Made by a program: the position numbers and the translations under genes. The notes under the pieces were generated by a model that was not told the origin of the DNA, ran no database searches, and was given only the letters and a program-made list of their open reading frames with translations. A DNA stretch of 64,000 nucleotides from Escherichia coli (GTDB lineage: Bacteria; Pseudomonadota; Gammaproteobacteria; Enterobacterales; Enterobacteriaceae): NCBI RefSeq assembly GCF_044647545.1, contig NZ_CP172818.1. One strand, written 5' to 3'. Of this stretch, positions 4,486 to 63,011 are shown one piece after another. Numbering within the stretch: the stretch's first letter is position 1; each line of letters starts with the position of its first letter.

Positions 4486-4839
4486 AAATTATCCTTATTT
4501 TATTTTTAGGGTACCGTCCGGCGGTAAAAATAAAATACTCGTGCGGTTTAATGAAAGCAATTGAGAAGAAAAACCCCATAAACCAAAATAATAAAACCTT
4601 AAATAACAACAATATGAAATTGATATTTTTAAAGTCAACTTTGTATTTGTTATATTTATCACAAAATCAACATTTTGTTTGTTATTGTATTTGTGATGCA
4701 TATCTCTATTTATTTATTGAATGTTCGAAAACATACTTTTCTAATGCAATGTTTTTTCGCTATACCCCTTTATAGATTCTGAATTCTCACCTGTCGGCTA
4801 TTTTCTCCTTACCTCATGTGACATATTCCCCATTTTACT

Positions 4840-5320
4840 CAAAAAAAATTTATATAAAAGCACCTTTTTCATAAACCTTATTTCCCCCAAAAAAATCTTT
4901 TTTTATCCCTTTGGGCGTTTTTCCTGTTTTTTCCCCCTTTTTTTCTTTTTTACCCCTTAAAAAAAGGAACGCGGCATTTTTTTGCCCTACGAAAAAATCG
5001 TAAAATTTGCCGAGCCGGGTCTGGGTTTTAAGATCCCGTTTTTGAAAAGGGGAAAAAAATTTCCACCCGTAATAAGGCGGGGGTTTATCAGGGATTAAAG
5101 CCTTCAACCCCCCACCAGAAACCGGCAAAAAAAAAAATTGAGTGAGCTTCCACATAAAAAATTCAGAAAAAGGCGCGGTTTATACCACCTACAACACCAT
5201 TGAAGCATTAAAAGATCGTCTGATTGTCCGTCAGTTGCCAACTCAACTGGAGAATTCCCATATACATACAACTACAAAACAACAAACATAAACAAAACCC
5301 ACAAAAAAAAATATCTCTAA
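4840..5320. other. Low-complexity, homopolymer-rich non-coding block in the cmtB-tktA intergenic space
   Basis: Runs of A8-A11, T7-T9, C5-C6, G5; no ORF support; spacer is about 890 bp, which I recall as much shorter in K-12. Confidence 0.6.
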
Positions 5321-8399: not shown

Positions 8400-8441
8400 T
8401 TTATTACGCCGGATTTGACGCATAACGCATCTTATCCGGGC

Positions 8442-9430: not shown

Positions 9431-9528
9431 TTGGATTTGCGAAACACAAGTATGCGCTAATTATCGCCTTAAATGAAAAGAGGGCCGCATCAAGGACTAA
9501 CACAGGTCCCATACCACCAAACTCCAAC

Positions 9529-11542
<2,014 letters not shown>

Positions 11543-11550
11543 AGCGAACC

Positions 11551-11682
11551 TCAAATTATTTTATTAAGTGTAAAACAGTTAACGACTATCGCAGCCTGGA
11601 ACTGCGATAACAACCCATAAGCACATGGATTTTCCAGCAGTGAATGCTGACGCTCCAACTGCGCAACCGGTTTCTTTTTCAT
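11551..11682 (-). CDS. yqgB: Small protein YqgB (43 aa) upstream of speA
   Basis: Minus-strand translation [43 protein letters not shown]. Confidence 0.7.
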
Positions 11683-11817
11683 AACATTATTAAGCACATA
11701 ACCGAACGTAAGTGTGACAGTTCGGCGAAACCACGAGAAAACTCTTGTTTTTACAAGAGCGCCCTTGTTCAGTCCTCAGTAACTGTAACCAGCTCTTGAA
11801 TCCTGAGAAGCGCCGAG

Positions 11818-12033
11818 ATGGGTATAACATCGGCAGGTATGCAAAGCAGAGATGCAGAGTGCGGGGAACGAATCTTCACCAGAACGGTGAGACAGGTTAA
11901 GCAGCAGACAACGGTTCATTATTTCGTATCACCTCCACGGCCGCCTGTTAAGACGAACCCACAAGCCAAAACTCTGATTTCAACCCGGCTGGAAGTGGCA
12001 ACACGAAAGAAACGTCGTGTGCTTTTTATTTAA
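11818..12033 (+). CDS. yqgC: Small uncharacterised ORF YqgC (71 aa)
   Basis: ORF in expected position between speA and metK; recognition from memory only. Confidence 0.4.
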
Positions 12034-12296
12034 GCCGCGCGCCGCGTTTTATACCCCACAATGGCAGAAAATTGCAAAAGATAAATACGCAGAATGCCAG
12101 CATTGTCAGGAAAAATTTCCAGCCACGTTTTTAAAAGAATGAGACACGATTCAAAAAAAAGTGGAAATCGGGTGAAGAATTGACCTAAAATAGCCATCCA
12201 GATGTTAATCCATCCATACCGATTAACACTCAGACTGCCAGTGTTTTTAACCTGCAGAGTCGTGGTAGGATCCGCTACCACAGAAAATCCACACAA
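12030..12296 (-). CDS. yqgD: Small uncharacterised ORF, possibly YqgD
   Basis: 88 aa ORF overlapping the metK upstream region; weak. Confidence 0.3.
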
Positions 12297-12336
12297 CAGT
12301 TTGAGCTAACCAAATTCTCTTTAGGTGATATTAAAT

Positions 12337-13491
12337 ATGGCAAAACACCTTTTTACGTCCGAGTCCGTCTCTGAAGGGCATCCTGACAAAATTGCTGACC
12401 AAATCTCTGATGCCGTTTTAGACGCGATCCTCGAACAGGATCCGAAAGCACGCGTTGCTTGCGAAACCTACGTAAAAACCGGCATGGTTTTAGTTGGCGG
12501 CGAAATCACCACCAGCGCCTGGGTAGACATCGAAGAGATCACCCGTAACACCGTTCGCGAAATTGGCTATGTACATTCCGACATGGGCTTTGACGCTAAC
12601 TCCTGTGCGGTTCTGAGCGCTATCGGCAAACAGTCTCCTGACATCAACCAGGGCGTTGACCGTGCCGATCCGCTGGAACAGGGCGCGGGTGACCAGGGTC
12701 TGATGTTTGGCTACGCAACCAATGAAACCGACGTGCTGATGCCAGCGCCTATCACCTATGCACACCGTCTGGTACAGCGTCAGGCTGAAGTGCGTAAAAA
12801 CGGCACTCTGCCGTGGCTGCGCCCGGACGCGAAAAGCCAGGTGACTTTCCAGTATGACGACGGCAAAATCGTTGGTATCGATGCTGTCGTGCTTTCCACT
12901 CAGCACTCTGAAGAAATCGACCAGAAATCGCTGCAAGAAGCGGTAATGGAAGAGATCATCAAGCCGATTCTGCCGGCTGAATGGCTGACTTCTGCCACCA
13001 AATTCTTCATCAACCCGACCGGTCGTTTTGTTATCGGTGGCCCGATGGGTGACTGCGGTCTGACTGGTCGTAAAATTATCGTTGATACCTACGGCGGCAT
13101 GGCACGTCACGGTGGTGGTGCATTCTCTGGTAAAGATCCATCAAAAGTGGACCGTTCCGCAGCGTACGCAGCACGTTATGTCGCGAAAAACATCGTTGCT
13201 GCTGGCCTGGCCGATCGTTGTGAAATTCAGGTTTCCTACGCAATCGGCGTGGCTGAACCGACCTCTATCATGGTGGAAACTTTCGGTACCGAGAAAGTGC
13301 CTTCTGAACAACTGACTCTGCTGGTACGTGAGTTCTTTGACCTGCGTCCATACGGTCTGATTCAGATGCTGGATCTGCTGCACCCGATCTACAAAGAAAC
13401 CGCAGCATACGGTCACTTTGGTCGCGAACATTTCCCGTGGGAAAAAACCGACAAAGCGCAGCTGCTGCGCGATGCTGCCGGTCTGAAGTAA
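12337..13491 (+). CDS. metK: S-adenosylmethionine synthetase
   Basis: Start at [18 protein letters not shown]; 384 aa. Confidence 0.97.
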
Positions 13492-13513
13492 TCTTTCTTC
13501 ACCTGCTTTCAAA

Positions 13514-13542
13514 GGCCAGCCTCGCGCTGGCCTTTTTCTTTT
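13514..13542 (+). terminator. Rho-independent terminator of metK
   Basis: GGCCAGC-CTCGC-GCTGGCC hairpin followed by TTTTTCTTTT. Confidence 0.8.
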
Positions 13543-13828
13543 ACCTCACCGCGGTGGATAGGCGTTCACGCGGCATCCGGCAAAAAGCTGCCCGCACAAT
13601 AACATCATTCTTCCTGAACACGTTTTACCGCAAATTATCATCGCTACTGAAACCGATTACACCAACCACACCAGACAAAGATTTGTAATATTTTCATATT
13701 ATTATTCGGTTTTCACAGTTGTTACATTTCTTTTCAGTAAAGTCTTAATTGCAGATAACAGCGTTTAATCTATGATGATATAACTCAATTATTTTCATGC
13801 ACTTAAATCATAACTAAGATAAATGTTA

Positions 13829-13844
13829 GTGTAAGCGATTACAC
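13829..13844. promoter_or_regulatory. Gal operator-like palindrome (GalR/GalS site) in the galP promoter
   Basis: GTGTAAGCGATTACAC, near-perfect palindrome matching the gal operator pattern. Confidence 0.6.
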
Positions 13845-13847
13845 TGA

Positions 13848-13863
13848 TGTGATTTGCTTCACA
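13848..13863. promoter_or_regulatory. CRP consensus site in the galP promoter
   Basis: TGTGA-TTTGCT-TCACA, full match to TGTGA-N6-TCACA. Confidence 0.6.
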
Positions 13864-13926
13864 TCTTTTTACGTCGTACTCACCTATCTTAATTCACAAT
13901 AAAAAATAACCATATTGGAGGGCATC

Positions 13927-15321
13927 ATGCCTGACGCTAAAAAACAGGGGCGGTCAAACAAGGCAATGACGTTTTTCGTCTGCTTCCTTGCTGCTCTGGC
14001 GGGATTACTCTTTGGCCTGGATATCGGTGTAATTGCTGGCGCACTGCCGTTTATTGCAGATGAATTCCAGATTACTTCGCACACGCAAGAATGGGTCGTA
14101 AGCTCCATGATGTTCGGTGCGGCAGTCGGTGCGGTGGGCAGCGGCTGGCTCTCCTTTAAACTCGGGCGCAAAAAGAGCCTGATGATCGGCGCAATTTTGT
14201 TTGTTGCCGGTTCACTGTTCTCTGCGGCTGCGCCAAACGTTGAAGTACTGATTCTTTCCCGCGTTCTGCTGGGGCTGGCGGTGGGTGTGGCCTCTTATAC
14301 CGCACCACTGTACCTGTCAGAAATTGCGCCGGAAAAAATTCGCGGCAGTATGATCTCGATGTATCAGTTGATGATCACTATCGGGATCCTCGGTGCTTAT
14401 CTTTCTGATACCGCCTTCAGCTACACCGGTGCATGGCGCTGGATGCTGGGTGTGATTATCATCCCGGCAATTTTGCTGCTGATTGGTGTCTTCTTCCTGC
14501 CAGACAGCCCTCGTTGGTTTGCCGCCAAACGCCGTTTTGTTGATGCCGAACGCGTGCTGCTGCGCCTGCGTGACACCAGCGCGGAAGCGAAACGTGAACT
14601 GGATGAAATCCGTGAAAGTTTGCAGGTTAAACAGAGTGGCTGGGCGCTGTTTAAAGAGAACAGCAACTTCCGTCGCGCGGTGTTCCTTGGCGTACTGTTG
14701 CAGGTAATGCAGCAATTCACCGGGATGAACGTCATCATGTATTACGCGCCGAAAATCTTCGAACTGGCGGGTTATACCAACACTACCGAGCAAATGTGGG
14801 GGACGGTGATCGTCGGCCTGACTAACGTACTCGCCACCTTTATCGCAATCGGCCTTGTTGACCGCTGGGGACGTAAACCAACGCTAACGCTGGGCTTCCT
14901 GGTGATGGCTGCTGGCATGGGCGTACTCGGTACAATGATGCATATCGGTATCCACTCTCCGTCGGCGCAGTATTTCGCTATCGCCATGCTGCTGATGTTT
15001 ATTGTCGGTTTTGCCATGAGTGCCGGTCCGCTGATTTGGGTACTGTGCTCCGAAATTCAGCCGCTGAAAGGCCGCGATTTTGGCATCACCTGCTCCACCG
15101 CCACCAACTGGATTGCCAACATGATCGTTGGCGCAACGTTCCTGACCATGCTCAACACGCTGGGTAACGCCAACACCTTCTGGGTGTATGCGGCTCTGAA
15201 CGTACTGTTTATCTTGCTGACATTGTGGCTGGTACCGGAAACCAAACACGTTTCGCTGGAACATATTGAACGTAATCTGATGAAAGGTCGTAAACTGCGC
15301 GAAATCGGCGCTCACGATTAA
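13927..15321 (+). CDS. galP: Galactose:H+ symporter (MFS)
   Basis: Start at [17 protein letters not shown]; 464 aa. Confidence 0.96.
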
Positions 15322-15397
15322 TCTCCTCAGGCTTCCTCCCGTCGCGGAGGAAGCCACCTCTTGCAGTCATCTTTTCTTCGCTCTATCCTCTGCCGCT

Positions 15398-15895
15398 ATG
15401 AAAACATCCCGTCTCCCTATCGCCATCCAACAGGCCGTTATGCGTCGCCTGCGGGAAAAACTCGCCCAGGCCAACCTGAAGCTAGGACGTAACTACCCGG
15501 AGCCAAAACTCTCTTACACCCAGCGCGGCACCTCCGCCGGAACAGCCTGGCTGGAAGGCTATGAAATTCGCCTCAATCCCGTTTTGCTGTTGGAAAACAG
15601 TGAAGCCTTTATTGAAGAAGTGGTGCCGCACGAACTGGCACATTTGCTGGTATGGAAACATTTCGGCCGCGTAGCACCACATGGCAAAGAGTGGAAGTGG
15701 ATGATGGAAAGCGTGCTGGGCGTTCCCGCCCGTCGTACGCATCAGTTTGAACTGCAATCCGTGCGCCGCAACACCTTCCCCTACCGCTGTAAGTGCCAGG
15801 AACATCAGCTTACCGTACGCCGCCATAATCGCGTAGTTCGTGGCGAAGCCGTCTATCGCTGTGTTCACTGCGGCGAACAGCTGGTTGCGAAATAA
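15398..15895 (+). CDS. sprT: SprT (YggI) zinc-metallopeptidase-like protein
   Basis: 165 aa ORF with HELAH motif. Confidence 0.9.
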
Positions 15896-15989
15896 CCACC
15901 TGAACTATCAGGAACTTTCCTGACCTGGCTGATTGCATACCAAAACAACTTTCGCTACGTTGCTGGCTCGTTTTAACACGGAGTAAGTG

Positions 15990-16697
15990 ATGTACCGTTA
16001 TTTGTCTATTGCTGCGGTGGTACTGAGCGCAGCATTTTCCGGCCCGGCGTTGGCCGAAGGTATCAATAGTTTTTCTCAGGCGAAAGCCGCGGCGGTAAAA
16101 GTCCACGCTGACGCGCCCGGTACGTTTTATTGCGGATGTAAAATTAACTGGCAGGGCAAAAAAGGCGTTGTTGATCTGCAATCGTGCGGCTATCAGGTGC
16201 GCAAAAATGAAAACCGCGCCAGCCGCGTAGAGTGGGAACACGTCGTTCCCGCCTGGCAATTCGGTCACCAGCGCCAGTGCTGGCAGGACGGTGGACGTAA
16301 AAATTGCGCCAAAGATCCGGTCTATCGCAAGATGGAAAGCGATATGCATAACCTGCAACCGTCAGTCGGCGAGGTGAATGGCGATCGCGGCAACTTTATG
16401 TACAGCCAGTGGAATGGCGGCGAAGGCCAGTACGGTCAATGCGCCATGAAGGTCGATTTCAAAGAAAAAGCTGCCGAACCACCAGCGCGTGCACGCGGTG
16501 CCATTGCGCGCACCTACTTCTATATGCGCGACCAATACAACCTGACACTCTCCCGCCAGCAAACGCAGCTGTTCAACGCATGGAACAAGATGTATCCGGT
16601 TACCGACTGGGAGTGCGAGCGTGATGAACGCATCGCGAAGGTGCAGGGCAATCATAACCCGTATGTGCAACGCGCTTGCCAGGCGCGAAAGAGCTAA
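15990..16697 (+). CDS. endA: Periplasmic DNA-specific endonuclease I
   Basis: Start at [12 protein letters not shown] (signal peptide), GGAG RBS 7 nt upstream; 235 aa. Confidence 0.93.
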
Positions 16698-16776
16698 CCT
16701 ACACTAGCGGGATTCTTTTTGTTAACCCCTACCCCACGCGTACAACCGCGTGGGGAGACGACGCGGATTTTTAACT

Positions 16777-17508
16777 ATGCGTATCCCCCGCATTTATCAT
16801 CCTGAACCACTGACCAGCCATTCTCACATCGCGCTTTGCGAAGATGCCGCCAACCATATCGGGCGCGTACTGCGCATGGGGCCGGGGCAGGCGTTGCAAT
16901 TGTTTGACGGCAGCAACCAGGTCTTTGACGCCGAAATTACCAGCGCCAGCAAAAAAAGCGTGGAAGTGAAGGTGCTGGAAGGCCAACTCGACGATCGTGA
17001 ATCTCCGCTGCATATTCACCTCGGTCAGGTGATGTCGCGTGGCGAAAAAATGGAATTTACTATCCAGAAATCGATCGAACTCGGTGTAAGCCTCATTACG
17101 CCACTTTTTTCTGAACGCTGCGGCGTTAAACTGGATAGTGAACGTCTGAACAAGAAGCTCCAGCAGTGGCAGAAGATTGCAATTGCTGCCTGTGAGCAGT
17201 GTGGTCGTAACCGGGTGCCGGAAATCCGTCCAGCGATGGATCTGGAAGCCTGGTGTGCAGAGCAGGATGAAGGACTGAAACTGAATCTTCACCCGCGCGC
17301 CAGTAACAGCATCAATACGTTGCCGTTACCGGTTGAACGCGTCCGCCTGCTGATTGGCCCGGAAGGCGGTTTATCGGCAGATGAAATTGCCATGACTGCC
17401 CGCTATCAATTTACTGATATCCTGTTGGGACCTCGCGTTTTGCGTACAGAGACAACTGCGCTCACCGCCATTACCGCGCTACAAGTACGATTTGGCGATT
17501 TGGGCTAA
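16777..17508 (+). CDS. rsmE: 16S rRNA m3U1498 methyltransferase
   Basis: Start at [12 protein letters not shown]; 243 aa. Confidence 0.92.
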
Positions 17509-17520
17509 CGGAGAAGAATA

Positions 17521-18471
17521 ATGATCAAGCTCGGCATCGTGATGGACCCCATCGCAAACATCAACATCAAGAAAGATTCCAGTTTCGCTATGTTGCTGGA
17601 AGCACAGCGTCGTGGTTACGAACTTCACTATATGGAGATGGGCGATCTGTATCTGATCAATGGCGAAGCCCGCGCCCATACCCGCACGCTGAACGTGAAG
17701 CAGAACTACGAAGAGTGGTTTTCGTTCGTCGGTGAACAGGATCTGCCGCTGGCCGATCTCGATGTGATCCTGATGCGTAAAGACCCGCCGTTTGATACCG
17801 AGTTTATCTACGCGACCTATATTCTGGAACGTGCCGAAGAGAAAGGGACGCTGATCGTTAACAAGCCGCAGAGCCTGCGCGACTGTAACGAGAAACTGTT
17901 TACTGCCTGGTTCTCTGACTTAACGCCAGAAACGCTGGTTACGCGCAATAAAGCGCAGCTAAAAGCGTTCTGGCAGAAACACGGCGACATCATTCTTAAG
18001 CCACTGGACGGTATGGGCGGCGCGTCGATTTTCCGCGTGAAAGAAGGCGATCCAAACCTCGGCGTGATTGCCGAAACCCTGACTGAGCATGGCACTCGCT
18101 ACTGCATGGCGCAAAATTACCTGCCAGCCATTAAAGATGGCGACAAACGCGTGCTGGTAGTGGATGGCGAGCCGGTGCCGTATTGCCTGGCGCGTATTCC
18201 GCAGGGGGGCGAAACCCGTGGCAATCTGGCTGCCGGTGGTCGCGGTGAACCTCGTCCGCTGACGGAAAGTGACTGGAAAATCGCCCGTCAGATTGGGCCG
18301 ACGCTGAAAGAAAAAGGGCTGATTTTTGTTGGTCTGGATATCATCGGCGACCGTCTGACTGAAATTAACGTCACCAGCCCAACCTGTATTCGTGAGATTG
18401 AAGCAGAGTTTCCGGTGTCGATCACCGGAATGTTAATGGATGCCATCGAAGCACGTTTACAGCAGCAGTAA
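17521..18471 (+). CDS. gshB: Glutathione synthetase
   Basis: 316 aa ORF, ATP-grasp sequence. Confidence 0.96.
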   Translation: MIKLGIVMDPIANINIKKDSSFAMLLEAQRRGYELHYMEMGDLYLINGEARAHTRTLNVKQNYEEWFSFVGEQDLPLADLDVILMRKDPPFDTEFIYATYILERAEEKGTLIVNKPQSLRDCNEKLFTAWFSDLTPETLVTRNKAQLKAFWQKHGDIILKPLDGMGGASIFRVKEGDPNLGVIAETLTEHGTRYCMAQNYLPAIKDGDKRVLVVDGEPVPYCLARIPQGGETRGNLAAGGRGEPRPLTESDWKIARQIGPTLKEKGLIFVGLDIIGDRLTEINVTSPTCIREIEAEFPVSITGMLMDAIEARLQQQ

Positions 18472-18579
18472 CCCACCTTAGCGAGAAGGATCTCGTTGAG
18501 ACTCTGAGTGACAGCGCCCTTCTTTCCACGCATACTGGGCGCTGTTGCTTTTTTGAACCAGGAAACAGAACCTCTGACA

Positions 18580-19143
18580 ATGAATTTACAGCATCACTTT
18601 CTTATTGCCATGCCTGCTCTCCAGGATCCGATTTTCCGTCGTTCCGTGGTCTACATTTGCGAACATAATACCAATGGTGCAATGGGGATCATCGTCAACA
18701 AGCCGCTGGAAAATCTCAAAATTGAAGGGATTCTGGAAAAGCTGAAGATCACGCCGGAGCCGCGTGATGAATCAATCCGTCTGGATAAACCGGTTATGCT
18801 CGGCGGTCCGCTGGCTGAAGATCGCGGGTTTATTTTGCATACTCCGCCCTCCAATTTTGCTTCCAGCATTCGCATTTCAGACAACACGGTGATGACCACT
18901 TCCCGCGATGTGCTGGAAACGCTCGGCACCGATAAACAACCGTCTGACGTATTGGTGGCTCTGGGTTATGCCTCCTGGGAGAAAGGTCAACTGGAACAAG
19001 AAATTCTCGATAACGCGTGGCTAACGGCCCCGGCAGATCTGAATATTCTGTTCAAAACGCCGATTGCCGACCGCTGGCGCGAGGCGGCAAAACTGATTGG
19101 TGTGGATATTCTCACCATGCCTGGTGTGGCAGGACACGCCTGA
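18580..19143 (+). CDS. yqgE: UPF0301 protein YqgE
   Basis: Start at [14 protein letters not shown]; 187 aa. Confidence 0.9.
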
Positions 19144-19559
19144 TGAGTGGAACCTTACTCGCCTTCGACTTCGGTACCAAAAGCATTGGTGTAGCGGTCG
19201 GCCAACGCATTACCGGCACCGCTCGCCCATTGCCTGCAATTAAAGCACAGGACGGTACGCCGGACTGGAATCTCATCGAACGTTTACTGAAAGAGTGGCA
19301 GCCGGACGAAATCATCGTTGGTTTGCCGCTGAATATGGATGGCACCGAGCAACCATTGACTGCCAGAGCCCGTAAATTTGCCAACCGTATTCATGGCCGT
19401 TTCGGTGTTGAAGTAAAGCTCCATGACGAGCGTCTTAGCACCGTGGAGGCACGTTCCGGTCTGTTTGAACAGGGCGGCTATCGGGCGCTCAACAAAGGCA
19501 AAGTTGACTCTGCCTCTGCGGTTATTATTCTCGAAAGCTATTTCGAGCAGGGATATTAA
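19143..19559 (+). CDS. ruvX: Holliday-junction resolvase-like RNase RuvX (YqgF)
   Basis: Start at [20 protein letters not shown], overlapping the yqgE stop; 138 aa. Confidence 0.93.
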
Positions 19560-19599
19560 GGCGATTTAAAAGCCTGGCGGATAGTCGTACCATCCCGCC

Positions 19600-19745
19600 A
19601 TCTTGCCGGATGCGGCGTGAACGCCTTATCCAGCACACATCTGGCAGCGGCTGTAGGTCTGATAAGACGCGTTAGCGTCGCATCAGACGTTTATTGCCGG
19701 GTGCTGCGTTTGTATGCCTGATAAGCGTAGCGCATCAGGCATATT
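19600..19745. repeat. REP/BIME palindromic repeat cluster
   Basis: Tandem GCCGGATGCGGCGTGAACGCCTTATCC / GCCTGATAAGCGTAGCGCATCAGGC units between ruvX and yggR. Confidence 0.8.
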
Positions 19746-19771
19746 TACTAAACTAATCAATCACTTTAGCC

Positions 19772-20752
19772 TCACAAACGTCCTTCCCCCACCCGCTGCT
19801 GATAACTCTGCTGAAACGTTAACATCCCCACCTGCTGCCCGGTTTGAATAACATGCGGCAACTGGTGGGTTTTCCCTTCGCGAATCAAATTCCCCACCGC
19901 GGGAGTGTTAATCAGTAATTCAAACAGCGCCACGCGTCCTTCCTGTTTATCCACTTCCAGCTTTTGTGACAGCACTGCCCGTAAACTACCCGCCAGTTGA
20001 TTACGTACGGGATCTTTTTCCTGCGCCGGAAATGAATCCACCAGTCGCTCAACTGCCTGCGCGGCACCACGCGTATGTAAAGTTGCCAGCACCAGGTGTC
20101 CGGTTTCTGCTGCCGTCAGCGCCAGACGGATTGTCTCGCTGTCACGCAGCTCTCCGAGCAAAATCACATCGGGATCTTCCCGCAATGCGGCCCGCAATCC
20201 CGATGCGAACGTCATACAGTGCAAACCAATCTCCCGCTGCTGGATCAAACATCGCTGGCTGGCATAGAGATATTCCACAGGATCTTCCAGCGTCAGAATA
20301 TGCGCATCGGCATGTTGATTGAGATAGCCAACCATCGCCGCCAGCGTGGTAGATTTGCCGCTCCCCGTCGCCCCCGTCACCAGAATCAGGCCATTCTCGC
20401 TCTTGAGTAATTCCGGCAATACCGGTGGCGCACCAAGCTGTTCGAGCTGTGGACAGTGCGAAGGTAACAACCGTAATGCCAGAGAAATACCTTGCCGTTG
20501 CGCGAACGCACTGCCACGCAACCGCTGATTTTCCGCCAGCGACACAGCAAAATCCAGCTGACCATTCTCCAGCAATATTGCCCGCTGATCGTCATCCAGC
20601 CACTCCCGCAGTAGCTCTTCGACGCCCGGCGCATCAAACGGCGCAGCTTCCATTCGCCCGCGAATACGCCATCGTGCGGGCCAGGCGCTGCACAGGTGTA
20701 GATCCGAGACGTTATGCTTTACACTAAGGGCCACAATTTCTTCCATATTCAT
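19772..20752 (-). CDS. yggR: PilT-like type IV pilus retraction ATPase homolog
   Basis: Start at MNMEEIVALSVKHNVSDLHL; Walker A GATGSGKST; 326 aa. Confidence 0.9.
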   Translation of the reverse strand: MNMEEIVALSVKHNVSDLHLCSAWPARWRIRGRMEAAPFDAPGVEELLREWLDDDQRAILLENGQLDFAVSLAENQRLRGSAFAQRQGISLALRLLPSHCPQLEQLGAPPVLPELLKSENGLILVTGATGSGKSTTLAAMVGYLNQHADAHILTLEDPVEYLYASQRCLIQQREIGLHCMTFASGLRAALREDPDVILLGELRDSETIRLALTAAETGHLVLATLHTRGAAQAVERLVDSFPAQEKDPVRNQLAGSLRAVLSQKLEVDKQEGRVALFELLINTPAVGNLIREGKTHQLPHVIQTGQQVGMLTFQQSYQQRVGEGRL

Positions 20753-20769
20753 ACTAAGATCCTCGGAAA

Positions 20770-21474
20770 ATGAACGATATTGCGCATAACCTGGCACAGG
20801 TCCGGGACAAAATCTCAGCGGCTGCAACGCGTTGCGGCCGTTCTCCAGAAGAAATTACGCTGCTTGCAGTCAGTAAAACAAAACCTGCGAGCGCCATCGC
20901 AGAAGCCATTGATGCCGGGCAGCGTCAATTTGGTGAAAACTACGTTCAGGAAGGGGTAGATAAAATTCGCCACTTTCAGGAACTGGGCGTAACAGGATTA
21001 GAATGGCATTTTATTGGCCCGTTGCAGTCTAATAAAAGCCGCCTGGTGGCAGAGCATTTCGACTGGTGTCATACCATCGACCGTTTGCGCATTGCTACCC
21101 GCCTCAACGATCAGCGCCCGGCAGAACTTTCCCCTCTTAACGTACTGATTCAAATTAATATTAGTGATGAAAACAGTAAGTCCGGGATTCAACTGGCAGA
21201 ACTGGACGAGCTGGCAGCTGCGGTCGCTGAACTACCGCGTTTACGTCTGCGCGGGCTGATGGCAATCCCTGCGCCTGAGTCAGAATATGTAAGGCAGTTT
21301 GAAGTTGCACGCCAAATGGCTGTAGCATTTGCCGGACTGAAAACGCGCTACCCGCATATCGACACGCTCTCTCTGGGAATGTCGGACGATATGGAAGCCG
21401 CCATTGCGGCAGGTAGCACGATGGTTCGTATCGGCACTGCAATTTTTGGTGCGCGTGATTACTCTAAAAAATAA
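20770..21474 (+). CDS. yggS: PLP-homeostasis protein YggS
   Basis: 234 aa ORF. Confidence 0.93.
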   Translation: MNDIAHNLAQVRDKISAAATRCGRSPEEITLLAVSKTKPASAIAEAIDAGQRQFGENYVQEGVDKIRHFQELGVTGLEWHFIGPLQSNKSRLVAEHFDWCHTIDRLRIATRLNDQRPAELSPLNVLIQINISDENSKSGIQLAELDELAAAVAELPRLRLRGLMAIPAPESEYVRQFEVARQMAVAFAGLKTRYPHIDTLSLGMSDDMEAAIAAGSTMVRIGTAIFGARDYSKK

Positions 21475-21491
21475 GGAATTAAAGGAACGCC

Positions 21492-22058
21492 ATGAATACG
21501 TTGACTTTCCTGCTTTCAACGGTCATTGAGCTGTATACCATGGTGCTGTTATTACGCATCTGGATGCAGTGGGCTCATTGTGATTTTTACAACCCCTTCT
21601 CACAGTTTGTGGTGAAGGTAACGCAGCCAATTATCGGGCCACTGCGCCGCGTTATTCCGGCAATGGGTCCCATTGATAGCGCCTCGCTGCTGGTTGCGTA
21701 CATTCTCAGTTTCATCAAAGCCATCGTGCTGTTTAAAGTGGTGACCTTCCTGCCAATCATCTGGATTGCCGGTTTACTGATTCTGCTGAAAACCATCGGC
21801 CTGCTGATTTTCTGGGTCCTGCTGGTGATGGCGATTATGAGCTGGGTAAGCCAGGGTCGTAGCCCGATTGAATACGTGCTGATTCAGCTGGCAGATCCGC
21901 TGCTGCGCCCGATTCGCCGCTTGCTACCGGCAATGGGTGGGATTGATTTCTCGCCGATGATCCTCGTTCTGCTGCTGTATGTCATCAATATGGGTGTCGC
22001 AGAAGTATTACAGGCAACCGGAAACATGCTGCTGCCGGGGCTGTGGATGGCGTTATGA
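21492..22058 (+). CDS. yggT: YggT inner-membrane protein
   Basis: 188 aa hydrophobic ORF. Confidence 0.9.
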
Positions 22059-22345
22059 GTGCCGTAACAGTTAATGATGACGGTCTGGTTTTACGGCTCT
22101 ATATTCAGCCGAAAGCCAGCCGTGATTCTATTGTCGGTTTACATGGCGACGAGGTAAAAGTCGCCATTACCGCGCCGCCGGTTGACGGCCAGGCCAACAG
22201 CCATCTGGTGAAGTTTCTCGGTAAGCAATTCCGGGTTGCCAAAAGCCAGGTGGTGATTGAAAAAGGCGAACTTGGCCGCCACAAACAAATTAAAATCATT
22301 AATCCGCAACAAATCCCGCCAGAAATCGCGGCGTTAATTAATTAG
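22055..22345 (+). CDS. yggU: UPF0235 protein YggU
   Basis: Start at [13 protein letters not shown] overlapping the yggT stop; 96 aa. Confidence 0.88.
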
Positions 22346-22352
22346 GTATCAT

Positions 22353-22946
22353 ATGCAAAAAGTTGTCCTCGCAACCGGCAATGCCGGTAAAGTGCGTGAG
22401 CTGGCGTCGCTGCTTAGCGACTTCGGTCTTGATATCGTGGCCCAAACAGACCTCGGCGTAGATTCCGCTGAAGAAACCGGCCTGACCTTTATTGAAAACG
22501 CGATTCTGAAAGCGCGCCATGCGGCAAAAGTGACCGGTTTACCGGCAATTGCCGACGACTCCGGTCTGGCGGTAGATGCGCTGGGTGGCGCGCCGGGTAT
22601 TTACTCCGCGCGTTATTCCGGTGAAGACGCGACCGATCAAAAGAATCTGCAAAAACTGCTGGAAACGATGAAAGACGTACCGGACGACCAACGTCAGGCG
22701 CGTTTCCACTGCGTGCTGGTATATCTGCGTCACGCGGAAGATCCCACTCCGCTGGTATGCCACGGTAGCTGGCCAGGCGTGATTACTCGTGAACCAGCGG
22801 GCACTGGTGGCTTTGGTTATGATCCAATCTTCTTCGTACCTTCCGAAGGGAAAACCGCTGCCGAACTGACCCGCGAAGAAAAGAGCGCCATTTCCCACCG
22901 TGGTCAGGCGTTGAAACTGCTGCTGGACGCTTTACGTAATGGTTAA
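22353..22946 (+). CDS. rdgB: Non-canonical purine dNTP pyrophosphatase
   Basis: 197 aa ORF, Ham1 family. Confidence 0.95.
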
Positions 22947-24075
22947 ATTACCGCCGCTGAGTCTCTACATTCACATCCCGTGGTGCGTGCAGAAATGCCC
23001 GTACTGCGATTTCAACTCTCACGCGTTGAAAGGAGAAGTGCCGCACGACGATTATGTTCAGCATCTGCTTAACGATCTGGACAACGATGTGGCTTACGCT
23101 CAGGGCCGTGAAGTAAAGACAATCTTTATTGGCGGTGGTACGCCGAGCCTGCTTTCCGGCCCGGCGATGCAAACGCTGCTGGACGGCGTGCGTGCGCGTT
23201 TGCCGCTGGCAGCGGATGCAGAAATTACTATGGAAGCGAACCCTGGTACGGTAGAAGCCGATCGCTTTGTCGATTATCAGCGTGCTGGTGTGAACCGCAT
23301 CTCTATTGGTGTGCAGAGTTTTAGCGAAGAAAAGCTGAAACGACTTGGGCGCATTCATGGCCCGCAAGAAGCGAAACGAGCTGCGAAGCTGGCGAGCGGT
23401 TTAGGGTTACGTAGCTTTAACCTTGATTTGATGCATGGGCTGCCGGATCAATCACTGGAAGAGGCGCTAGGCGATCTGCGCCAGGCTATTGAACTGAATC
23501 CGCCGCATCTTTCCTGGTATCAACTGACCATCGAACCTAATACGCTGTTTGGCTCTCGCCCGCCGGTGCTGCCGGACGACGATGCGTTGTGGGATATATT
23601 CGAACAGGGGCATCAGTTATTAACCGCAGCGGGCTATCAGCAGTATGAAACATCCGCTTACGCCAAACCAGGTTATCAGTGCCAGCACAATCTCAACTAC
23701 TGGCGTTTTGGCGACTACATCGGTATTGGCTGCGGCGCGCACGGCAAAGTGACCTTCCCGGATGGGCGCATTCTGCGTACCACCAAAACGCGTCATCCGC
23801 GTGGTTTTATGCAGGGAAGATATCTGGAAAGCCAGCGTGATGTCGAAGCCGCAGATAAGCCGTTTGAGTTCTTTATGAATCGCTTCCGTCTGTTGGAAGC
23901 CGCGCCGCGCGTGGAGTTTAGCCAGTATACTGGCCTTTCTGAAGAAGTTATTCGCTCTCAGTTAGACGAGGCCATCGCTCAGGGTTATCTCACAGAATGT
24001 GCGGATTACTGGCAGATAACGGAACATGGTAAATTATTCTTAAACTCACTTCTTGAATTATTCCTCGCTGAGTAA
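22939..24075 (+). CDS. hemW: Radical-SAM heme chaperone HemW (YggW)
   Basis: 378 aa ORF with CxxxCxxC radical-SAM motif (CVQKCPYC). Confidence 0.93.
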
Positions 24076-25262
24076 TCATTAATGCCGCATGCGGCGTTAA
24101 TCACTTCTATAATAAATATAATTATATATTAAACATATATTAAAATAACACAACAATAATATTCTTCAATCAAAAATAAACAAAAACACACGATGAACCG
24201 AACAACATGCAAAAACAAATCACATCTCAAAAATTTATAACACTCTTCCCCTCCAACAACGAAAACAAAGAAAAATACGTTAAAAAACAAAAAATATCGA
24301 AACAGAAAAACGAAAAAAAAATAAAGTAATGAATCACCACACGAGAACAAGAAAAAAACAACAAAATATATACTAATAACACAGTAGGAAAGGAATAAGA
24401 ATCAACAAAGAAATTTTTACCATCATCAAACGATAACAAACAACCGAAGAGGGAGATAGTTGCCACACCGACACAGAACATCTCTCCACATCACAACAAT
24501 AACAGGTAGCGGAGCACCCCCAATAACCAAAACACAGACCCATACTTGACAACCAGAACAAAAAAACACAACGACAAAAACCAAACAACGAAGAATGAAA
24601 AATGATAAAGAAGAAATTGAATAATTAACACTATCACCCCTACATCAAACTAGAAAAGAAATCGTTGTTAGATATGCGCGGTGTGGTGGTCCTGTGATGC
24701 GCGAACTAGGCGTGACGCCTTTTCTGTCGCCGTCATGCTTGCTCTGGTTGTATGCGTAGTCTGATAAGACGCTCCAAACCACAAAAGCACAGCATCCCAT
24801 TCAGACCAAAGAAGGTTATGATTGCCGGCATTTTCTACCGCTGTCAACGTCTCATCTTGTTATAACTGGATTACTGATACCGCCCTCAAACGTGTTAATT
24901 GTTTTTCCCTACACTGCGCGTTTCTAGCACGCTATTAGCGGGATATGCAAGGGACTAAGAGTCGCGGTAAAAACCGGCATATCAAACGCGGCTACCCGCT
25001 TCAGAAAAAGCAACCTCCAGGCCTAAAGCGTTCGACCTACCAAGTTCTCGTCAAGGCGGCATCGGCGGCATTTTACGCAACGAAGGCCGATCTTCACAAT
25101 TATGATTACCGGGAATAAAATCGCGATTTACCCAAACGATCGAACGGTTACAAATAATTCGCACCGCAAACCAACAATCCAAAAACTAGGATTCAAACCC
25201 ACCAAATAAAAAAAAAAAAAAAAAGGAAAAACAAAAAAAAAAACAACAAAAAAAAAAAAAAG
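24076..25262. other. About 1.2 kb non-coding block with extreme A/C-rich, G/T-poor plus-strand composition, REP-like fragments and a terminal A-rich tract
   Basis: Composition read directly; only low-complexity minus-strand ORFs; ends in A-rich run 25205-25262 abutting the yggM stop. Confidence 0.7.
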
Positions 25263-25265
25263 AAA

Positions 25266-26273
25266 TTACTTAATCACACCATTGCGCCGCAATTGTTCGG
25301 TATCTTTTTTCCAGCGTTCATTAGCCTGGTTGATATCGTCAATTTTCATCAAAATCGTGACTTTTTTACTGTTTATTTCTGAAACTTTCATCGTTAACGG
25401 ATATTGCCCTTTTTCGAGCGTTATCCAGTCATCCTGCAATTTACGGCTAAGTTTTTGTGATTGCAGGAAAGTCTGTCGCCGTTGTTCGTTGATATCGAAA
25501 TCTCGCTTCTGCTGAATCGGCACTTCATAACACTCTTCACTCTGTTTATGACATGCCGCAATCGCCGGTTGATAAACCTCTTTGTCATATTTAACCGCGA
25601 ACGCCTCGCTATCGTTCTGTTTATTAAACTCATCACGCTGTTGGTGAATTTTTTTAAAGGCGTCTTCGCGGGTCATTTGCTTACCATTTGCATCTTTTCC
25701 CCAATATGCATCCGCTGCTTTCTGCGCCGCCACCATTTGCTTATCAAGCGCTTTCACTTCCTTTTCCAGCGCAGGAATCGAGTTCTTCTGGGTATTCAAC
25801 GCAGTCTCAAGCTGACTAAAGCGATAATTGAAATCTTCGCTATTCACGATCAGATATTTATTATTCGTTTTGATATCGTCGACCACCCGCCCACGATCGC
25901 TGGCTGCCGCCTGAAAAGAGTAAAAGTTCACCGACCAGCCAGACGCGGGCGTTCCTTTACTGGTTAACATCGCCGAGAATTTTACCGGTTTATCTTTCGT
26001 CCAGGTCTGTTCGAGCAGTTCGTAATCTGCCAACTGACCGACCCAGGTATAGAGATCGTCACTGGAAGATACATCGCCTTCCGCTGACCAGGTGGCCTGA
26101 TTACCCTTAGCATCAAGATTTTTTAAGCTGATGGCATCAAGCTTGAGAATGCCGTGATACTGCTTTTTGAATTGATCTTTTAAGATATTTTCAGTTGGCG
26201 ATTCGCCATCTGCCCAGACATTACCAGTCATCAACATAAGCAGCGCCGTGCCAACAATCCATTGCTTTTTCAC
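25266..26273 (-). CDS. yggM: Periplasmic DUF1202 protein YggM
   Basis: 335 aa ORF with signal peptide. Confidence 0.9.
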   Translation of the reverse strand: MKKQWIVGTALLMLMTGNVWADGESPTENILKDQFKKQYHGILKLDAISLKNLDAKGNQATWSAEGDVSSSDDLYTWVGQLADYELLEQTWTKDKPVKFSAMLTSKGTPASGWSVNFYSFQAAASDRGRVVDDIKTNNKYLIVNSEDFNYRFSQLETALNTQKNSIPALEKEVKALDKQMVAAQKAADAYWGKDANGKQMTREDAFKKIHQQRDEFNKQNDSEAFAVKYDKEVYQPAIAACHKQSEECYEVPIQQKRDFDINEQRRQTFLQSQKLSRKLQDDWITLEKGQYPLTMKVSEINSKKVTILMKIDDINQANERWKKDTEQLRRNGVIK

Positions 26274-36962: not shown

Positions 36963-37067
36963 CAATGCGTGCAATAGCGGCAAAGTGATGATAGATTGTG
37001 CAGTCTGCAGTAAATTGAAGAAATTTGATTGACGAGACGAGGCGAATCAGGTTTAATGCGCCCCGTT

Positions 37068-37143
37068 GCCCGGATAGCTCAGTCGGTAGAGCAGGGGATT
37101 GAAAATCCCCGTGTCCTTGGTTCGATTCCGAGTCCGGGCACCA
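37068..37143 (+). tRNA. pheV: tRNA-Phe (anticodon GAA)
   Basis: GCCCGGATAGCTCAGTCGGTAGAGCAGGGGATTGAAAATCCCCGTGTCCTTGGTTCGATTCCGAGTCCGGGCACCA, canonical cloverleaf with 3' CCA. Confidence 0.97.
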
Positions 37144-37154
37144 ATTCATAAGAA

Positions 37155-37182
37155 CCCGCCCACAAGGCGGGTTTTTGCTTTT
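37155..37182 (+). terminator. Rho-independent terminator of pheV
   Basis: CCCGCC-CACAA-GGCGGG followed by TTTTTGCTTTT. Confidence 0.85.
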
Positions 37183-37288
37183 GGATCTGACAATAACCTT
37201 CACGAAAAAAATTAGCTTATAAAGTCTGGGGGAATTACTCTCGCCACGTTAACGAGAGTAATTTTATTGATATTAATCTCCTGATACC

Positions 37289-37825
37289 TTACCCCCGTCC
37301 AAACTCCAGTCGCTGCACATTCACCATCCCAGGCTTCTCAGCAGCACTGACATCAATTTGTGTCACCCGCAGCGCATATTTTTCATCCAGTGCTTTTAAC
37401 CAGTTCAGCAGGTCATTAAACACCACAGGTTCTATCCAGACTTGAATATTCTCCCCACGCTCGGCTATCCGCTTGATGACCACCGAGTGCGCGGAAGCAC
37501 TGTCACTGATGACCCGCGATACCTGCGCAGGCGTTGTTGTGGCAGATTTTCGCGCTGCAATAATATCCGGCGCAGTGCTCTTCAGTCGCGCGTTCATCGC
37601 CACGAGCTGCTGCAACATCGTCTCCTGTTGCTCAATCCGTTCGCTCAACGGCTGCCAGATGACGACGTAATATCCGACGCTAAACAGGAACACCACCGCT
37701 GCCAGTAACATGCCCTTTTCACGCGGAGAACGCCCCGCCAGGTGTTGTGTCAGCCAGTGTTCGCCACGGCTTAACTGGCGTTCACGCCATTGCTGAAAAT
37801 AGTGAATAAATTTATCGCGTAACAT
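37289..37825 (-). CDS. yghD: Type II secretion GspM-like protein (cryptic)
   Basis: 178 aa ORF, position downstream of pheV. Confidence 0.8.
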   Translation of the reverse strand: MLRDKFIHYFQQWRERQLSRGEHWLTQHLAGRSPREKGMLLAAVVFLFSVGYYVVIWQPLSERIEQQETMLQQLVAMNARLKSTAPDIIAARKSATTTPAQVSRVISDSASAHSVVIKRIAERGENIQVWIEPVVFNDLLNWLKALDEKYALRVTQIDVSAAEKPGMVNVQRLEFGRG

Positions 37826-37826
37826 G

Positions 37827-55675: not shown

Positions 55676-56950
55676 TTAAATCTGCTTTTCATACAATCGG
55701 TAACGCTTGTACGGCTCCGCCCCAATGCGTTCCAGCATGTTATTCATGCCTGTATTGGTTTCGAGGATCCATGACATCTCCAGCGCATCGATCTTCCGGC
55801 GGGCAAACGGATCGCGTAAGGCTTCAATCAATAACAGCGCAATCACCGGGCCGATGCGGCTGAACTGATACTCGTCGCGCACGCCCATCAGCGGTACTCG
55901 CGCAGTTCGCACACCGCTGACTTTCAAACGCCACAGCAATTTTGCCCAGCCGAAGGGAAAGAGCGATCCGTTCAGATCGGCAATCGCCTCGTTGATGTTC
56001 GGCAAGCCGACAATAAACGCGCAGGGTGCAGAATCAATCTCAGCGATATAGATCATATCGTCCGGCACCAGATATTTAAGTTGATCGCCCATGGTCGCGA
56101 ATTCATGTTCGGTAAACGGCACAAATCCCCAGTTGTGCTGCCAGCCAGAGTTGAAAATCTCACGCAGGATCTGCATCTCTTCGGCAAACCGCTGACGATT
56201 GATGCAGCGAATGGTCACCTTTTTGCGCACCTGATCCATCAGTTTTTTTAGCGCCGGAGAGAAAGTGAGATCGGTTCGCTGCATCCACCACGCCAGTAAA
56301 TCAATGCCTTTGTGATAACCCAGTTGTTCAATATGCGCGGCATACCACGGTTTGCCGTGTGGCATCATCGCACAGGGTGGTGTGTCAAAACCTTCAATCA
56401 GTAATCCGCTTTCCTGATTGATATTCAGGCTGAAAGGACCGCTGATCTTACTTGCACCTTGTGACTTCAACCACGCTTCCGCTGCGCCAAACAACGCGGC
56501 AAAAACCTGCGGATCATCAATGGCGTCAATCATGCCGAAATGACCGGTATCTTTGCCGTAACGCTCGCGGTGCAAGGTATCTATTTGCGCGGTAATACGC
56601 CCAACTATCTGCCCCGCTTTTTTTGCCACCCACGCCTGCCAGATGATATGGTCCGTCCCCGGATTTTTCGCAGACAAATGCTCGTTGCGTTCAATGAATA
56701 AAGGGGGTATCCAGTTTGGATCGTCGGGATAAAGTGATGACGGAAAAGCGATAAATGCCTTAAGGTCATTTTTATTAAAGACGTCGCGAAACTGAAGACA
56801 ACCGGAAATTAACTTAAAACACTCCGAACGAATTTTATAATAAAAAACGATCGCGTCATACCGAAACAATACGATTCGTAAGTTTTTTTCCATATCCTTA
56901 TCGCGTCCCTCATTCAATCGTTTTAAGCCAGGATCCCTGGTTAACGGCAA
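55676..56950 (-). CDS. yghO: YghO, uncharacterised protein (possibly GNAT-like acyltransferase); start uncertain (alternative ATG at 56893)
   Basis: 424 aa ORF in the expected position after glcC; fold assignment is a guess. Confidence 0.7.
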   Translation of the reverse strand: MPLTRDPGLKRLNEGRDKDMEKNLRIVLFRYDAIVFYYKIRSECFKLISGCLQFRDVFNKNDLKAFIAFPSSLYPDDPNWIPPLFIERNEHLSAKNPGTDHIIWQAWVAKKAGQIVGRITAQIDTLHRERYGKDTGHFGMIDAIDDPQVFAALFGAAEAWLKSQGASKISGPFSLNINQESGLLIEGFDTPPCAMMPHGKPWYAAHIEQLGYHKGIDLLAWWMQRTDLTFSPALKKLMDQVRKKVTIRCINRQRFAEEMQILREIFNSGWQHNWGFVPFTEHEFATMGDQLKYLVPDDMIYIAEIDSAPCAFIVGLPNINEAIADLNGSLFPFGWAKLLWRLKVSGVRTARVPLMGVRDEYQFSRIGPVIALLLIEALRDPFARRKIDALEMSWILETNTGMNNMLERIGAEPYKRYRLYEKQI

Positions 56951-57900
56951 TACGAACGATTCCTCACGTCCATTCGAACGATATCCCTACCTCCATACAC
57001 CTCCCACACCCTTTCCGGCTCATTATCACCCACCGAAGAGGCTAATCACGTCTATAACACGACGGCATTAAATTACCCGCGACCGCATCGCTCCTCTACC
57101 ATGAAGGGACGGTCGGCTTGACCCCCCCACGCACCATAGATTACGCACCAATCACTCCCCAAGCTTAAAGACATAAAAACCGGCACCTCCCCCGCCCATG
57201 AATTTCCACGCCCTGAATGAAAGAAATCCCTGAACTGGATCTTTCTCTGCGCGTCGCGGTATTTCAGAACCCATCTCCAGAACAGACTCTATCAATTTGC
57301 CATGCCCCACATTAACTATGATCATTCAACCCACGCATACAACGAATACATTTTAACCACCCTTTTAACATACCAACCGATTCCTCCACTCCACCGAAAA
57401 TTATACGCCTACCTCCATACACCCCCACACCGTTTCCCGTCATTACACCCACCGAACACCGAACACTCTATAACACACGCATTAAATACCCCCGACCCCT
57501 CTCCCCTTTCACCAATAATTCGGCTTTCTCCTGACCCCCCCACCACATAATTACATAATTTACTCCAATTAAAATCATAAAAAATCCGGCATTTCTCCTC
57601 TATGAATCCACTAATAAAAAATCTAATGGATCTCCCCTTACAAACACCCAAACAACCATCAATAATTTATTAAACAAACTCAACACAAAAATTCACTTTT
57701 ATGAACTCTTAACGAATATCCACACCAAACAGTAAACCCCTCAAACACGCCTATCGATTTTCCGTCAAGTAAAACTTTTGAACAGATTGAAAATCCGCAG
57801 TGAAGCATATCCGGCGCGGCGGAATTTAGTGCAGATGCTTCATCACTCCTCTCAACCTTTAACGAAATCCAATCTCAAATCAGTAAACCTCCCCGGTCAA
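56940..57900. repeat. Degenerate direct repeats in a G-poor, C/A/T-rich non-coding block
   Basis: Two diverged copies about 440 bp apart (from about 56940 and 57380) sharing the motif CGATTCCTC...CCTACCTCCATACACC...CACCCACCGAA...CATTAAAT; no coherent ORF. Confidence 0.6.
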
Positions 57901-58024
57901 AACGCCTATCACTTCTCAACTGCGGCAAAGCTGGAAATTATTAAATCCAGCACTGTGAGCGGTGTATGCCTTGGCGGAACAGTTTCGGTAAGCCACCTCA
58001 TCTCCGGTCCGTCTATGACTTACT

Positions 58025-58300
58025 TTGGCGACCAGTTCGCAAGCAATTGCCGCGACGGGCTGGTTAGACACCGGCGACCTCGGTTATCTGCTGGACGGTT
58101 ATCTGTATGTCACCGGACGCATTAAAGATCTGATTATTATTCGTGGCCGTAATATCTGGCCGCAGGATATTGAATATATAGCGGAACAGGAACCGGAAAT
58201 TCATTCTGGCGATGCGATTGCTTTTGTTACCGCCCAGGAAAAAATCATTTTGCAGATCCAGTGTCGGATCAGCGACGAAGAACGTCGCGGGCAGGTTTCC
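58025..58300 (+). pseudogene. Fragment of an acyl-CoA synthetase / AMP-binding enzyme (C-terminal region only)
   Basis: Translation ...GWLDTGDLGYLLDGYLYVTGRIKDLIIIRGRNIWPQDIEYIA... matches the conserved C-terminal region of adenylate-forming enzymes; upstream frame is lost. Confidence 0.6.
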
Positions 58301-58558
58301 CACCCCGCACGCGGCCAAAATGAAAATGGAGTTACCCCTGCTAGCGATTTTCGATCTCTCCACACCACACCCTTTTACGGCCCCTCCAACCCCACCCGTG
58401 CGCAAGCGGAAACACGTAAACATTAGCGTAGGCTTCTAGTCTCAATGTTCATGAACCCCAATCATTAATCAAACTGACACTGTGACGGTGGCGAGCGGTA
58501 CTAGCTTTAAAGGTATTAATATTATAACCTGCTCGCCCGCGGCTTTCACGTTCGCGCA

Positions 58559-58840
58559 TTGACGCGTACTGCCCGCGCTCACGTCAATGATAATCTCCCC
58601 TCGGTGGGGGGTTGGCTGCAGGATACTCATTCACTTAGCGAGCTGGTTGCCGGAGCCAGCGTAGTGGTCCATTGCGCCGGGCAAGTGCGCGGGACAAGCA
58701 CCACGCTAATCGACCAGTCTAACCTTACCAAGCACCAAAGAGAGCTGCTAGCGCCAACGGTGTCCGTTTTTTTCTACCCTTTTCTCTTTCTATCTTCAGT
58801 TCCCCCGTACCCAAACGCGCTATACTGCTCTGAGCAATGA
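58559..58840 (+). pseudogene. Possible fragment of an NAD-dependent epimerase/dehydratase or SDR
   Basis: Short VVHCAGQV stretch resembling the DxVxHxAA region of Rossmann epimerases; weak. Confidence 0.25.
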
Positions 58841-59764
58841 CAATCAGTAATGGCGGACCAAATGACGCTGGTGGTGGACCACCTTACAGTCGGCGTTTTT
58901 CCCGCGAAAAAAGTGTTTAAACCCCGCGTTGACGGGATGAAACCCCTCTTTCTGTGACTACTTGGCGCCCTACAGACACAGCTTTCTTTGCCGGATATCA
59001 CCCTTTTTTTTCAGCAGGTGACCAATTAAGCCGGAGAAGCGCCTCAATGATACAGACGCAAAAATACAAGCAAACCTATGAATTATGCGATGGCGTCGCC
59101 GGCGGCTATGACTGGCAACGCGTACAGCAACTTGCCGCCGACGCCCGTTGCGGTTCCCTGGATGGTGTTCATTGCCGGTACTCACCGGCCTTGCGGATAT
59201 CAGTACCGCGTTGAGTCGCCTGGCAGGTAAAGAACCTATGCTCTACCCGTCGAAAATTCGTGAATTAACCCACGCTACCTTTCGTCAACTTCTAACCCTG
59301 TTGTTGAAGATAGTTAGCCTGGTCCCCGGATTACCCAGCAAGACGTATTACTTAACTTGTTTTTTGGTCTGTCACGTTTATATGTTTAATAATGTAATAA
59401 TAATAAATTGTAAAATTTCCTTTTTACAGGATTTTGTCGATATAGTGTAGTTATTCCGAAAGAGGGGGATCTCGTAAGCGCTATAGCCATTGCGTCGATG
59501 AACGTGCTGGGACTCTTTCTAATGGTTGGAGCCCGTAACGATGTTTCCATACCGATTCATATTTTGATGGCTATTAATACCCCTGCGGATGTCATAACCA
59601 CTGTGCTATCATGGGTGGCGCTTCTATCATGGGGCTATAAGGTAGATGTGCGCGACTAGCTAGAGGGCGACTGCGCTTTCGAGCCACCGCATTTTAGCCA
59701 TTACGGGTTACTCACCTGTTTATGATGTTTATTTCCGCCACCGAAGGCCGGATCGGCAATAAAA

Positions 59765-62981: not shown

Positions 62982-63011
62982 CTCACTAACACCCTCAATC
63001 CTTTGAATTTT

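Follow-up and report, generated by a model that had tools for sequence, protein, structure and literature searches.

A probable corrupted rendering of a TRAP transporter operon between hemW and yggM in an Escherichia coli assembly

The hemW-yggM interval and its composition

The window analyzed here, a 64,000-nt stretch of the E. coli contig NZ_CP172818.1, contains hemW (22939-24075, plus strand, ORF of 378 aa) and yggM (25266-26273, minus strand, ORF of 335 aa). The block between them spans 24076-25265 (1,190 nt) and is bounded by both stop codons. An earlier reading, made from the letters of the sequence and without database searches (the sequence-only reading), had placed this block exactly between the stop codons of two intact genes, which the full-length ORFs of hemW and yggM confirm. 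It had also named a short spacer at this position in K-12 and a much longer interval here; indeed, the spacer of MG1655 (K-12) measures 154 nt, compared with the 1,190 nt of the window.

The plus strand from 24109 to 24660 consists of 54% A, 21% C, 16% T and 9% G. With 75% A+C, the skew noted in that reading is real, and only the wording that the first ~600 bp were nearly all A and C was too strong. The best 450-nt window of the block reaches 76% A+C, whereas 450-nt windows of the background, calculated with the corrupted blocks described below excluded, average 51 ± 3% and never exceed 63%; the skew of the block thus lies about 8 SD off the background. At the right end, the A-rich tract noticed beside the yggM stop codon was located at 25203-25262, where 87% of the 60 nt are A. 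The REP-like fragments noticed in the middle of the block are represented by the 14-mer GTCTGATAAGACGC at 24759-24772 (plus strand), an exact match to the REP of the K-12 spacer and evidently a fragment of a K-12-type short-spacer allele. REP or BIME units are imperfect palindromes of ~35 nt that usually occur in pairs; the copy at 24759-24772 is a 14-nt half-site for which no complementary arm was found.

Distant blastn searches of the A/C-rich part against 5,426 complete E. coli genomes, 72,556 plasmids and 50,697 phage records were all negative. This agrees with the earlier impression of a composition unlike that of any E. coli intergenic region, insertion sequence or prophage end, and on this basis a mobile element, phage or plasmid was rejected as the source of the A/C-rich part. 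An exact 43-mer taken from the junk sequence was absent from the GTDB representative genomes and from JGI metagenome contigs. The ORFs of 57-84 aa within the block matched no NCBIfam family, and Rfam and tRNA searches of the block gave no real match; a hit to CrcZ was dismissed as a chance event, its score being 16.8 bits against a threshold of 95.

A TRAP transporter operon occupies the site in related strains

To place the locus among its relatives, megablast was employed on the collection of 5,426 complete E. coli genomes. The flanks of the window are near-identical to ST131-type genomes, e.g., FDAARGOS_497 and ECONIH1. In these ST131-type genomes, the nearest relatives of the window, the hemW-yggM interval is filled by a DctPQM-type TRAP transporter operon of 3,203 nt, with the gene order hemW, dctP-like, dctQ-like, dctM-like, yggM; an example is NZ_CP033850 (locus tags EGY17_RS04140-04150). 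The binding protein of the relative matches TIGR00787 (dctP) at 3e-85, and its large permease matches TIGR00786 (dctM) at 3.5e-142. The TRAP-derived part of the block is matched by 1,476 of the 5,426 complete genomes (~27%). The hemW-yggM site is a known presence/absence polymorphism, occupied by the TRAP operon in some strains and by a short REP spacer in others.

The sequence around the block follows the ST131-type allele closely, with flank identities of 99.97-100%. No difference from the relative NZ_CP033850 was found in 9566-24084, the stretch 25266-25600 is 100% identical to the relative, and the sequence between the corrupted blocks is essentially the same as in ST131-type genomes, with one difference in 18 kb. 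Homology to K-12 picks up again at 25263. An origin from a non-coli Escherichia, considered in view of a mean identity of 94%, was rejected given these flanks; the mean was low because the garbled piece had depressed it.

Operon remnants and base-specific thinning

Pieces of the operon follow one another along the plus strand of the block. The A/C-rich string at 24109-24660 corresponds to the thinned upstream region of the operon together with the dctP-like gene (1811 to ~3100 in the coordinates of the relative, L001). A well-preserved piece of the dctQ-like small-permease gene is located at 24713-24763 (L001 3161-3211, 96% over 51 nt), and tblastn recovered from the block residues 16-25 of the small permease as 10 identical amino acids. 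The fragment of the dctM-like large-permease gene at 24788-25137 (L001 3999-4439) is progressively thinned. Sensitive BLAST aligned 24788-25032 to L001 3999-4278 at 80% with many small gaps, and 25103-25137 to L001 4401-4439; in tblastn, residues ~128-210 of the large permease were recovered in frameshifted form, in two frames. The thinning ends in 25138-25265, where the operon allele, with ~540 nt of it still to come, runs out in the 60-nt A-rich finish, and accurate sequence returns abruptly at the yggM stop codon. In total, the block takes up 1,190 nt in place of 3,203 nt, and about two thirds of the bases are lost.

The thinning was quantified by aligning 24788-25265 to positions 3999-4979 of the relative, with an equal deletion cost for all bases. 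From left to right along this alignment, reference bases are skipped ever more often while their order is kept. Over the well-aligned part (24788-25137), 337 positions match, 10 are substituted and 94 bases of the reference are deleted; the deletions comprise 51 T, 33 G, 10 C and no A (chi-square against composition, p = 2e-10). Between the first and the last 100-nt bin, retention drops from 27/29 to 0/25 for T, from 16/16 to 1/14 for G and from 27/27 to 2/14 for C; for A, the final two bins still give 25/27 and 21/28. Over the 200 nt that close the interval in the relative, 46 of 55 A, 3 of 37 C, 3 of 30 G and 0 of 59 T are kept. The alignments show that the block is an ordered subsequence of the operon, from which T, G and then C have been dropped with rising frequency and A kept. 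Once T, G and finally C are no longer retained and A stays, an A-rich tract is left at the end; the apparent "poly-A tail" is the 3' end of the permease gene after all but A had been dropped.

For the A/C-rich part, a global alignment with very cheap gaps proved too permissive and was replaced by the longest common subsequence (LCS) and locally shuffled controls. The LCS of the 24109-24660 region against the homologous stretch of the relative (1,350 nt) was 560 of 604, compared with 539 ± 2.9 for shuffles and 513-543 for the A/C-rich part against other reference segments. The alignment score of this part was 239 versus 174.5 ± 12.5 for the locally shuffled controls, and its hidden collinearity with the 5' part of the operon is significant, at z ~5-7. 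This likeness to the operon is seen only by such statistics and is invisible to BLAST.

In comparison with the TRAP operon of NZ_CP033850, the block shares the locus, the orientation and collinear remnants of all three genes (statistical only for the dctP-like gene), but it has no intact gene, is A/C-skewed and has lost bases in a base-specific pattern. In place of a DctP-family gene, the window contains collinear DNA that is detectable only statistically and is accompanied by neither an ORF nor a peptide match. The DctQ-type gene is reduced to the 51 nt (10 aa) at 24713-24763, and the DctM-type gene to residues ~128-210 in two frames, followed by thinning to poly-A. The block is derived from the TRAP operon, yet it is no functional operon of this type.

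Strand-specific transition hypermutation of the deaminase type (G>A, T>C) was also considered and rejected, as the well-aligned part shows 10 substitutions against 94 single-base deletions. Natural pseudogene decay and hypermutation, known from DGR variable regions and deaminase footprints, do share with the block a localized departure from a template with a strand-asymmetric base bias. However, DGR and deaminase processes act by substitution (A-to-N, C-to-T), whereas in the block single T, G and C bases are lost in an ordered way; nor do they leave neighboring sequence identical to that of relatives or interleave a second allele, both of which are seen here.

The terminal A-rich tract, the strand-skewed composition and the location precisely between two stop codons could also be accounted for by a novel mobile or retro-element, i.e., a processed, poly-A-tailed insertion (SINE-like or retron-derived) between hemW and yggM. 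The A-tract, however, aligns to A residues kept from the 3' end of the permease gene, and similar A-runs close other corrupted blocks, such as the A35 run at 9530-9564. A search for terminal repeats or a target-site duplication around the block found none; the sole inverted repeat in the block is the hemW terminator, and its direct repeats are A-rich low-complexity pairs only. The terminal inverted repeats, target-site duplication and transposase of an insertion sequence or transposon are all lacking, and no further copy was present in the window or in the collections searched. In the block itself, no reverse transcriptase and no other protein or RNA family was found. The probability of such an element is negligible.

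Pieces of the K-12-type spacer within the block

The block shares four exact 9-14-mers with the K-12-type spacer, their strand and order being preserved: ATGCGGCGT at 24089, GTCTGATAAGACGC at 24759 (positions 62-75 of the K-12 spacer), TGATTGCCGG at 24819 and ATATCAAAC at 24979. None of them is present in the operon allele. Local shuffles gave an expectation of 0.33 such k-mers, and the chance of finding four in order is ~2e-5. The 9-mer ATGCGGCGT results from four edits at 24085-24097 relative to the related genome, which turn a stretch of the operon allele that has no counterpart of it into an exact match to the K-12 spacer.

Like the K-12-type spacer, the block has the four collinear 9-14-mers, the REP fragment and a K-12-like hemW terminator. 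Unlike it, the block scatters these pieces over 900 nt among operon-derived sequence, and no such natural allele exists in the 5,426 genomes. Recombination does not produce an interleaving of two alleles on a scale of 10 nt.

The terminator hairpin of hemW (24076-24108, plus strand) is an ST131-type allele with these four edits toward the K-12 REP. The edited hairpin resembles this REP (GCCGCATGCGGCGT), and its palindromic core is kept.

Further corrupted blocks in the window

At least three further corrupted blocks were identified in the window, all of them at DNA absent from K-12. Comparison with the relatives shows the same kind of damage at these places, where ST131-type DNA has no K-12 counterpart. 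All blocks decay from left to right on the plus strand regardless of gene orientation, and all reset abruptly, 0-60 nt from the point at which K-12 homology resumes.

In the first of these (4800-5311, plus strand), a prohibitin-family gene is smeared and then gives way to A/C junk, with 58 nt replacing 487 nt. In the smear, 60 of 63 substitutions copy a neighboring base, compared with 330 of 663 (50%) in the other noisy stretch of the window (p = 4e-15). The accurate sequence is back 15 nt before the stop codon of the prohibitin-family gene. In the second block (9476-9565, plus strand), the speB-speA interval with its hypothetical gene is reduced from 900 nt in the relative to 91 nt and closes with the A35 run at 9530-9564. 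Embedded at 9498-9506 is the 9-mer TAACACAGG, with which the K-12-specific spacer ends; 0.04 occurrences were expected.

The third and longest block (56779-64000, plus strand), delimited by comparison with E. coli genomes, consists of A/C-rich junk followed by ~6 kb of noisy sequence. The junk (56779-57915) begins exactly at the site of the K-12 IS5 in yghO and contains no IS5 k-mers. Within this block, a segment of ~160 nt is doubled in differently corrupted form, at ~56957-57120 and 57378-57540. The ~6-kb stretch at 57916-64000 has ~85% identity to every complete E. coli genome and is collinear with accessory genes of the ST131 type (fatty acyl-AMP ligase, epimerase, ACP, spt, annotated lptG and lptF). 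Compared with ECONIH1, it contains 663 substitutions and 402 indel bases. Its alignment has 108 gap openings, and its ORFs are shattered, none exceeding 182 aa. The noise in this stretch is at the level of raw reads and comes without compression.

The loiP-speB spacer, the length of which also differs between K-12 and ST131-type genomes, shows two small deletions (GCAT and C) at 8400-8440 relative to ST131-type genomes. These deletions may represent natural variation or minor corruption.

K-12-type layout combined with ST131-type alleles

The region 28711-56790 aligns collinearly to MG1655 over 28 kb without a break, at 96.5%. The window has a K-12-type layout here: the pheV site is empty, the gspL-gspC deletion is that of K-12, and junctions lie at 37150-37284 and 38790. 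The stretch 37050-38900 is covered in one piece only by K-12-lineage genomes, at 96.4% identity. ST131-type genomes match this DNA piecewise at 99.9-100% and add a ~100-kb pheV island as well as gsp genes amounting to 8 kb, both of which are missing from the window. The combination of a K-12-type layout with ST131-type alleles was found in none of the 5,426 complete genomes. As far as the comparison of layouts and alleles goes, this chimera suggests a reference-guided or mixed-strain origin.

Origin of the block

The small-permease piece, the REP pieces, the thinning, the sister blocks and the chimera lead us to read the block as an artefact and not as a new element. A two-haplotype or reference chimera is visible both in layout versus alleles and in the K-12 k-mers within operon-derived sequence, and a non-biological error pattern recurs at structurally variable sites with the conserved sequence exact. 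The novel inserted element implied by the sequence-only reading gives way to a degraded operon allele with pieces of the short spacer, at a known polymorphic site. We consider it highly likely, with a probability of about 0.88, that the block is not cellular DNA but the 3.2-kb TRAP operon in a computationally corrupted form, blended with fragments of the K-12-type 154-nt REP spacer.

We hypothesize that a consensus, polishing or reference-guided step met conflicting or missing support in strain-variable DNA. Reads of the ST131 type could have been laid over a K-12-type scaffold, a mixture of K-12 and ST131 could have been collapsed to a single sequence, or a neural polisher or infilling model could have been at work. 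Such a step would have chosen a base or a gap for each column, with a bias to the gap and to A, then C, the first letters of the alphabet. Several observations count against this explanation: the ~6 kb at 57916-64000 are noisy yet uncompressed, the block that starts at the K-12 IS5 boundary has no IS5 k-mers, the core is essentially error-free, and the A/C-rich part resembles the operon only statistically. No single simple model accounts for everything.

An artefact could also have arisen without a second haplotype, if a neural polisher, a base-caller or generative infilling drifted to low-entropy output, or if a gap was closed with a single low-quality read. The directional decay ending in a homopolymer, the retention in alphabetical order (A > C > G ~ T), the segment rendered twice (56957 and 57378), the raw-read-like noise of the ~85%-identity stretch and the poly-A and poly-G junk of strain BS-04, described below, would all fit an origin of this kind. 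However, the collinear K-12-spacer k-mers and the K-12-type layout of the window point to a second, K-12-type source, and a core that is exact over tens of kb is beyond a free-running generator. An artefact from one haplotype is regarded as unlikely.

The block could, on the other hand, be real DNA, namely a TRAP operon eroded in vivo by localized, strand-asymmetric mutation of accessory genes, with an A/C-rich pseudogene relic left behind. Its collinearity with the operon at the native locus and the intact flanking genes are in line with such erosion, and a targeting of foreign DNA could in principle explain why other accessory genes are damaged in the same way. Erosion would nevertheless require ~2,000 separate single-nucleotide deletions, of T, G and C only and with almost no substitutions, next to flanks that show 0 differences from relatives over 14.5 kb. 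The direction along the plus strand is constant whatever the gene orientation, pieces of the other allele alternate with operon sequence on a 10-nt scale, and the layout/allele chimera has a count of 0 among 5,426 genomes. We know of no mutational mechanism that gives such an ordered, base-specific loss, and erosion of the operon in vivo is judged very improbable. Even less credence is given to the wider proposal that the block and its sister blocks are all real, the A-rich relics of a directional removal of T, G and C in vivo that acted on horizontally acquired DNA and left the core untouched.

Similar junk in a RefSeq complete genome

The biology beneath the block is the ordinary presence/absence polymorphism of TRAP operon and REP spacer, and the interest of the case lies in quality control. 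Corrupted accessory genes that resemble exotic elements occur not only in the window but also in at least one RefSeq complete genome, the independent assembly of strain BS-04 (NZ_CP172819, L002 in our coordinates). Records of this kind make the accessory genome seem smaller and introduce false pseudogenes and false novel sequence. Such assemblies could be flagged automatically by an exact core, a layout/allele chimera and, at strain-variable sites, a left-to-right, base-specific thinning that ends in a homopolymer.

A search of the literature returned nothing useful on the assembly method of BS-04. In this 4.52-Mb genome, junk at 2930-3575 of L002 lies in the hemW-yggM interval, and its presence shows that such corruption reaches public databases. 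Around a small-permease piece, it comprises two runs of A (A60 and A24) and a G-rich run of ~180 nt; it adjoins the end of a K-12-type spacer and is unique to the BS-04 record. BS-04 and the window share homopolymer-rich strings in the same interval, but the strings themselves differ: in BS-04, G as well as A is dominant, the flanks are not of the ST131 type and the right end is a K-12-type spacer.
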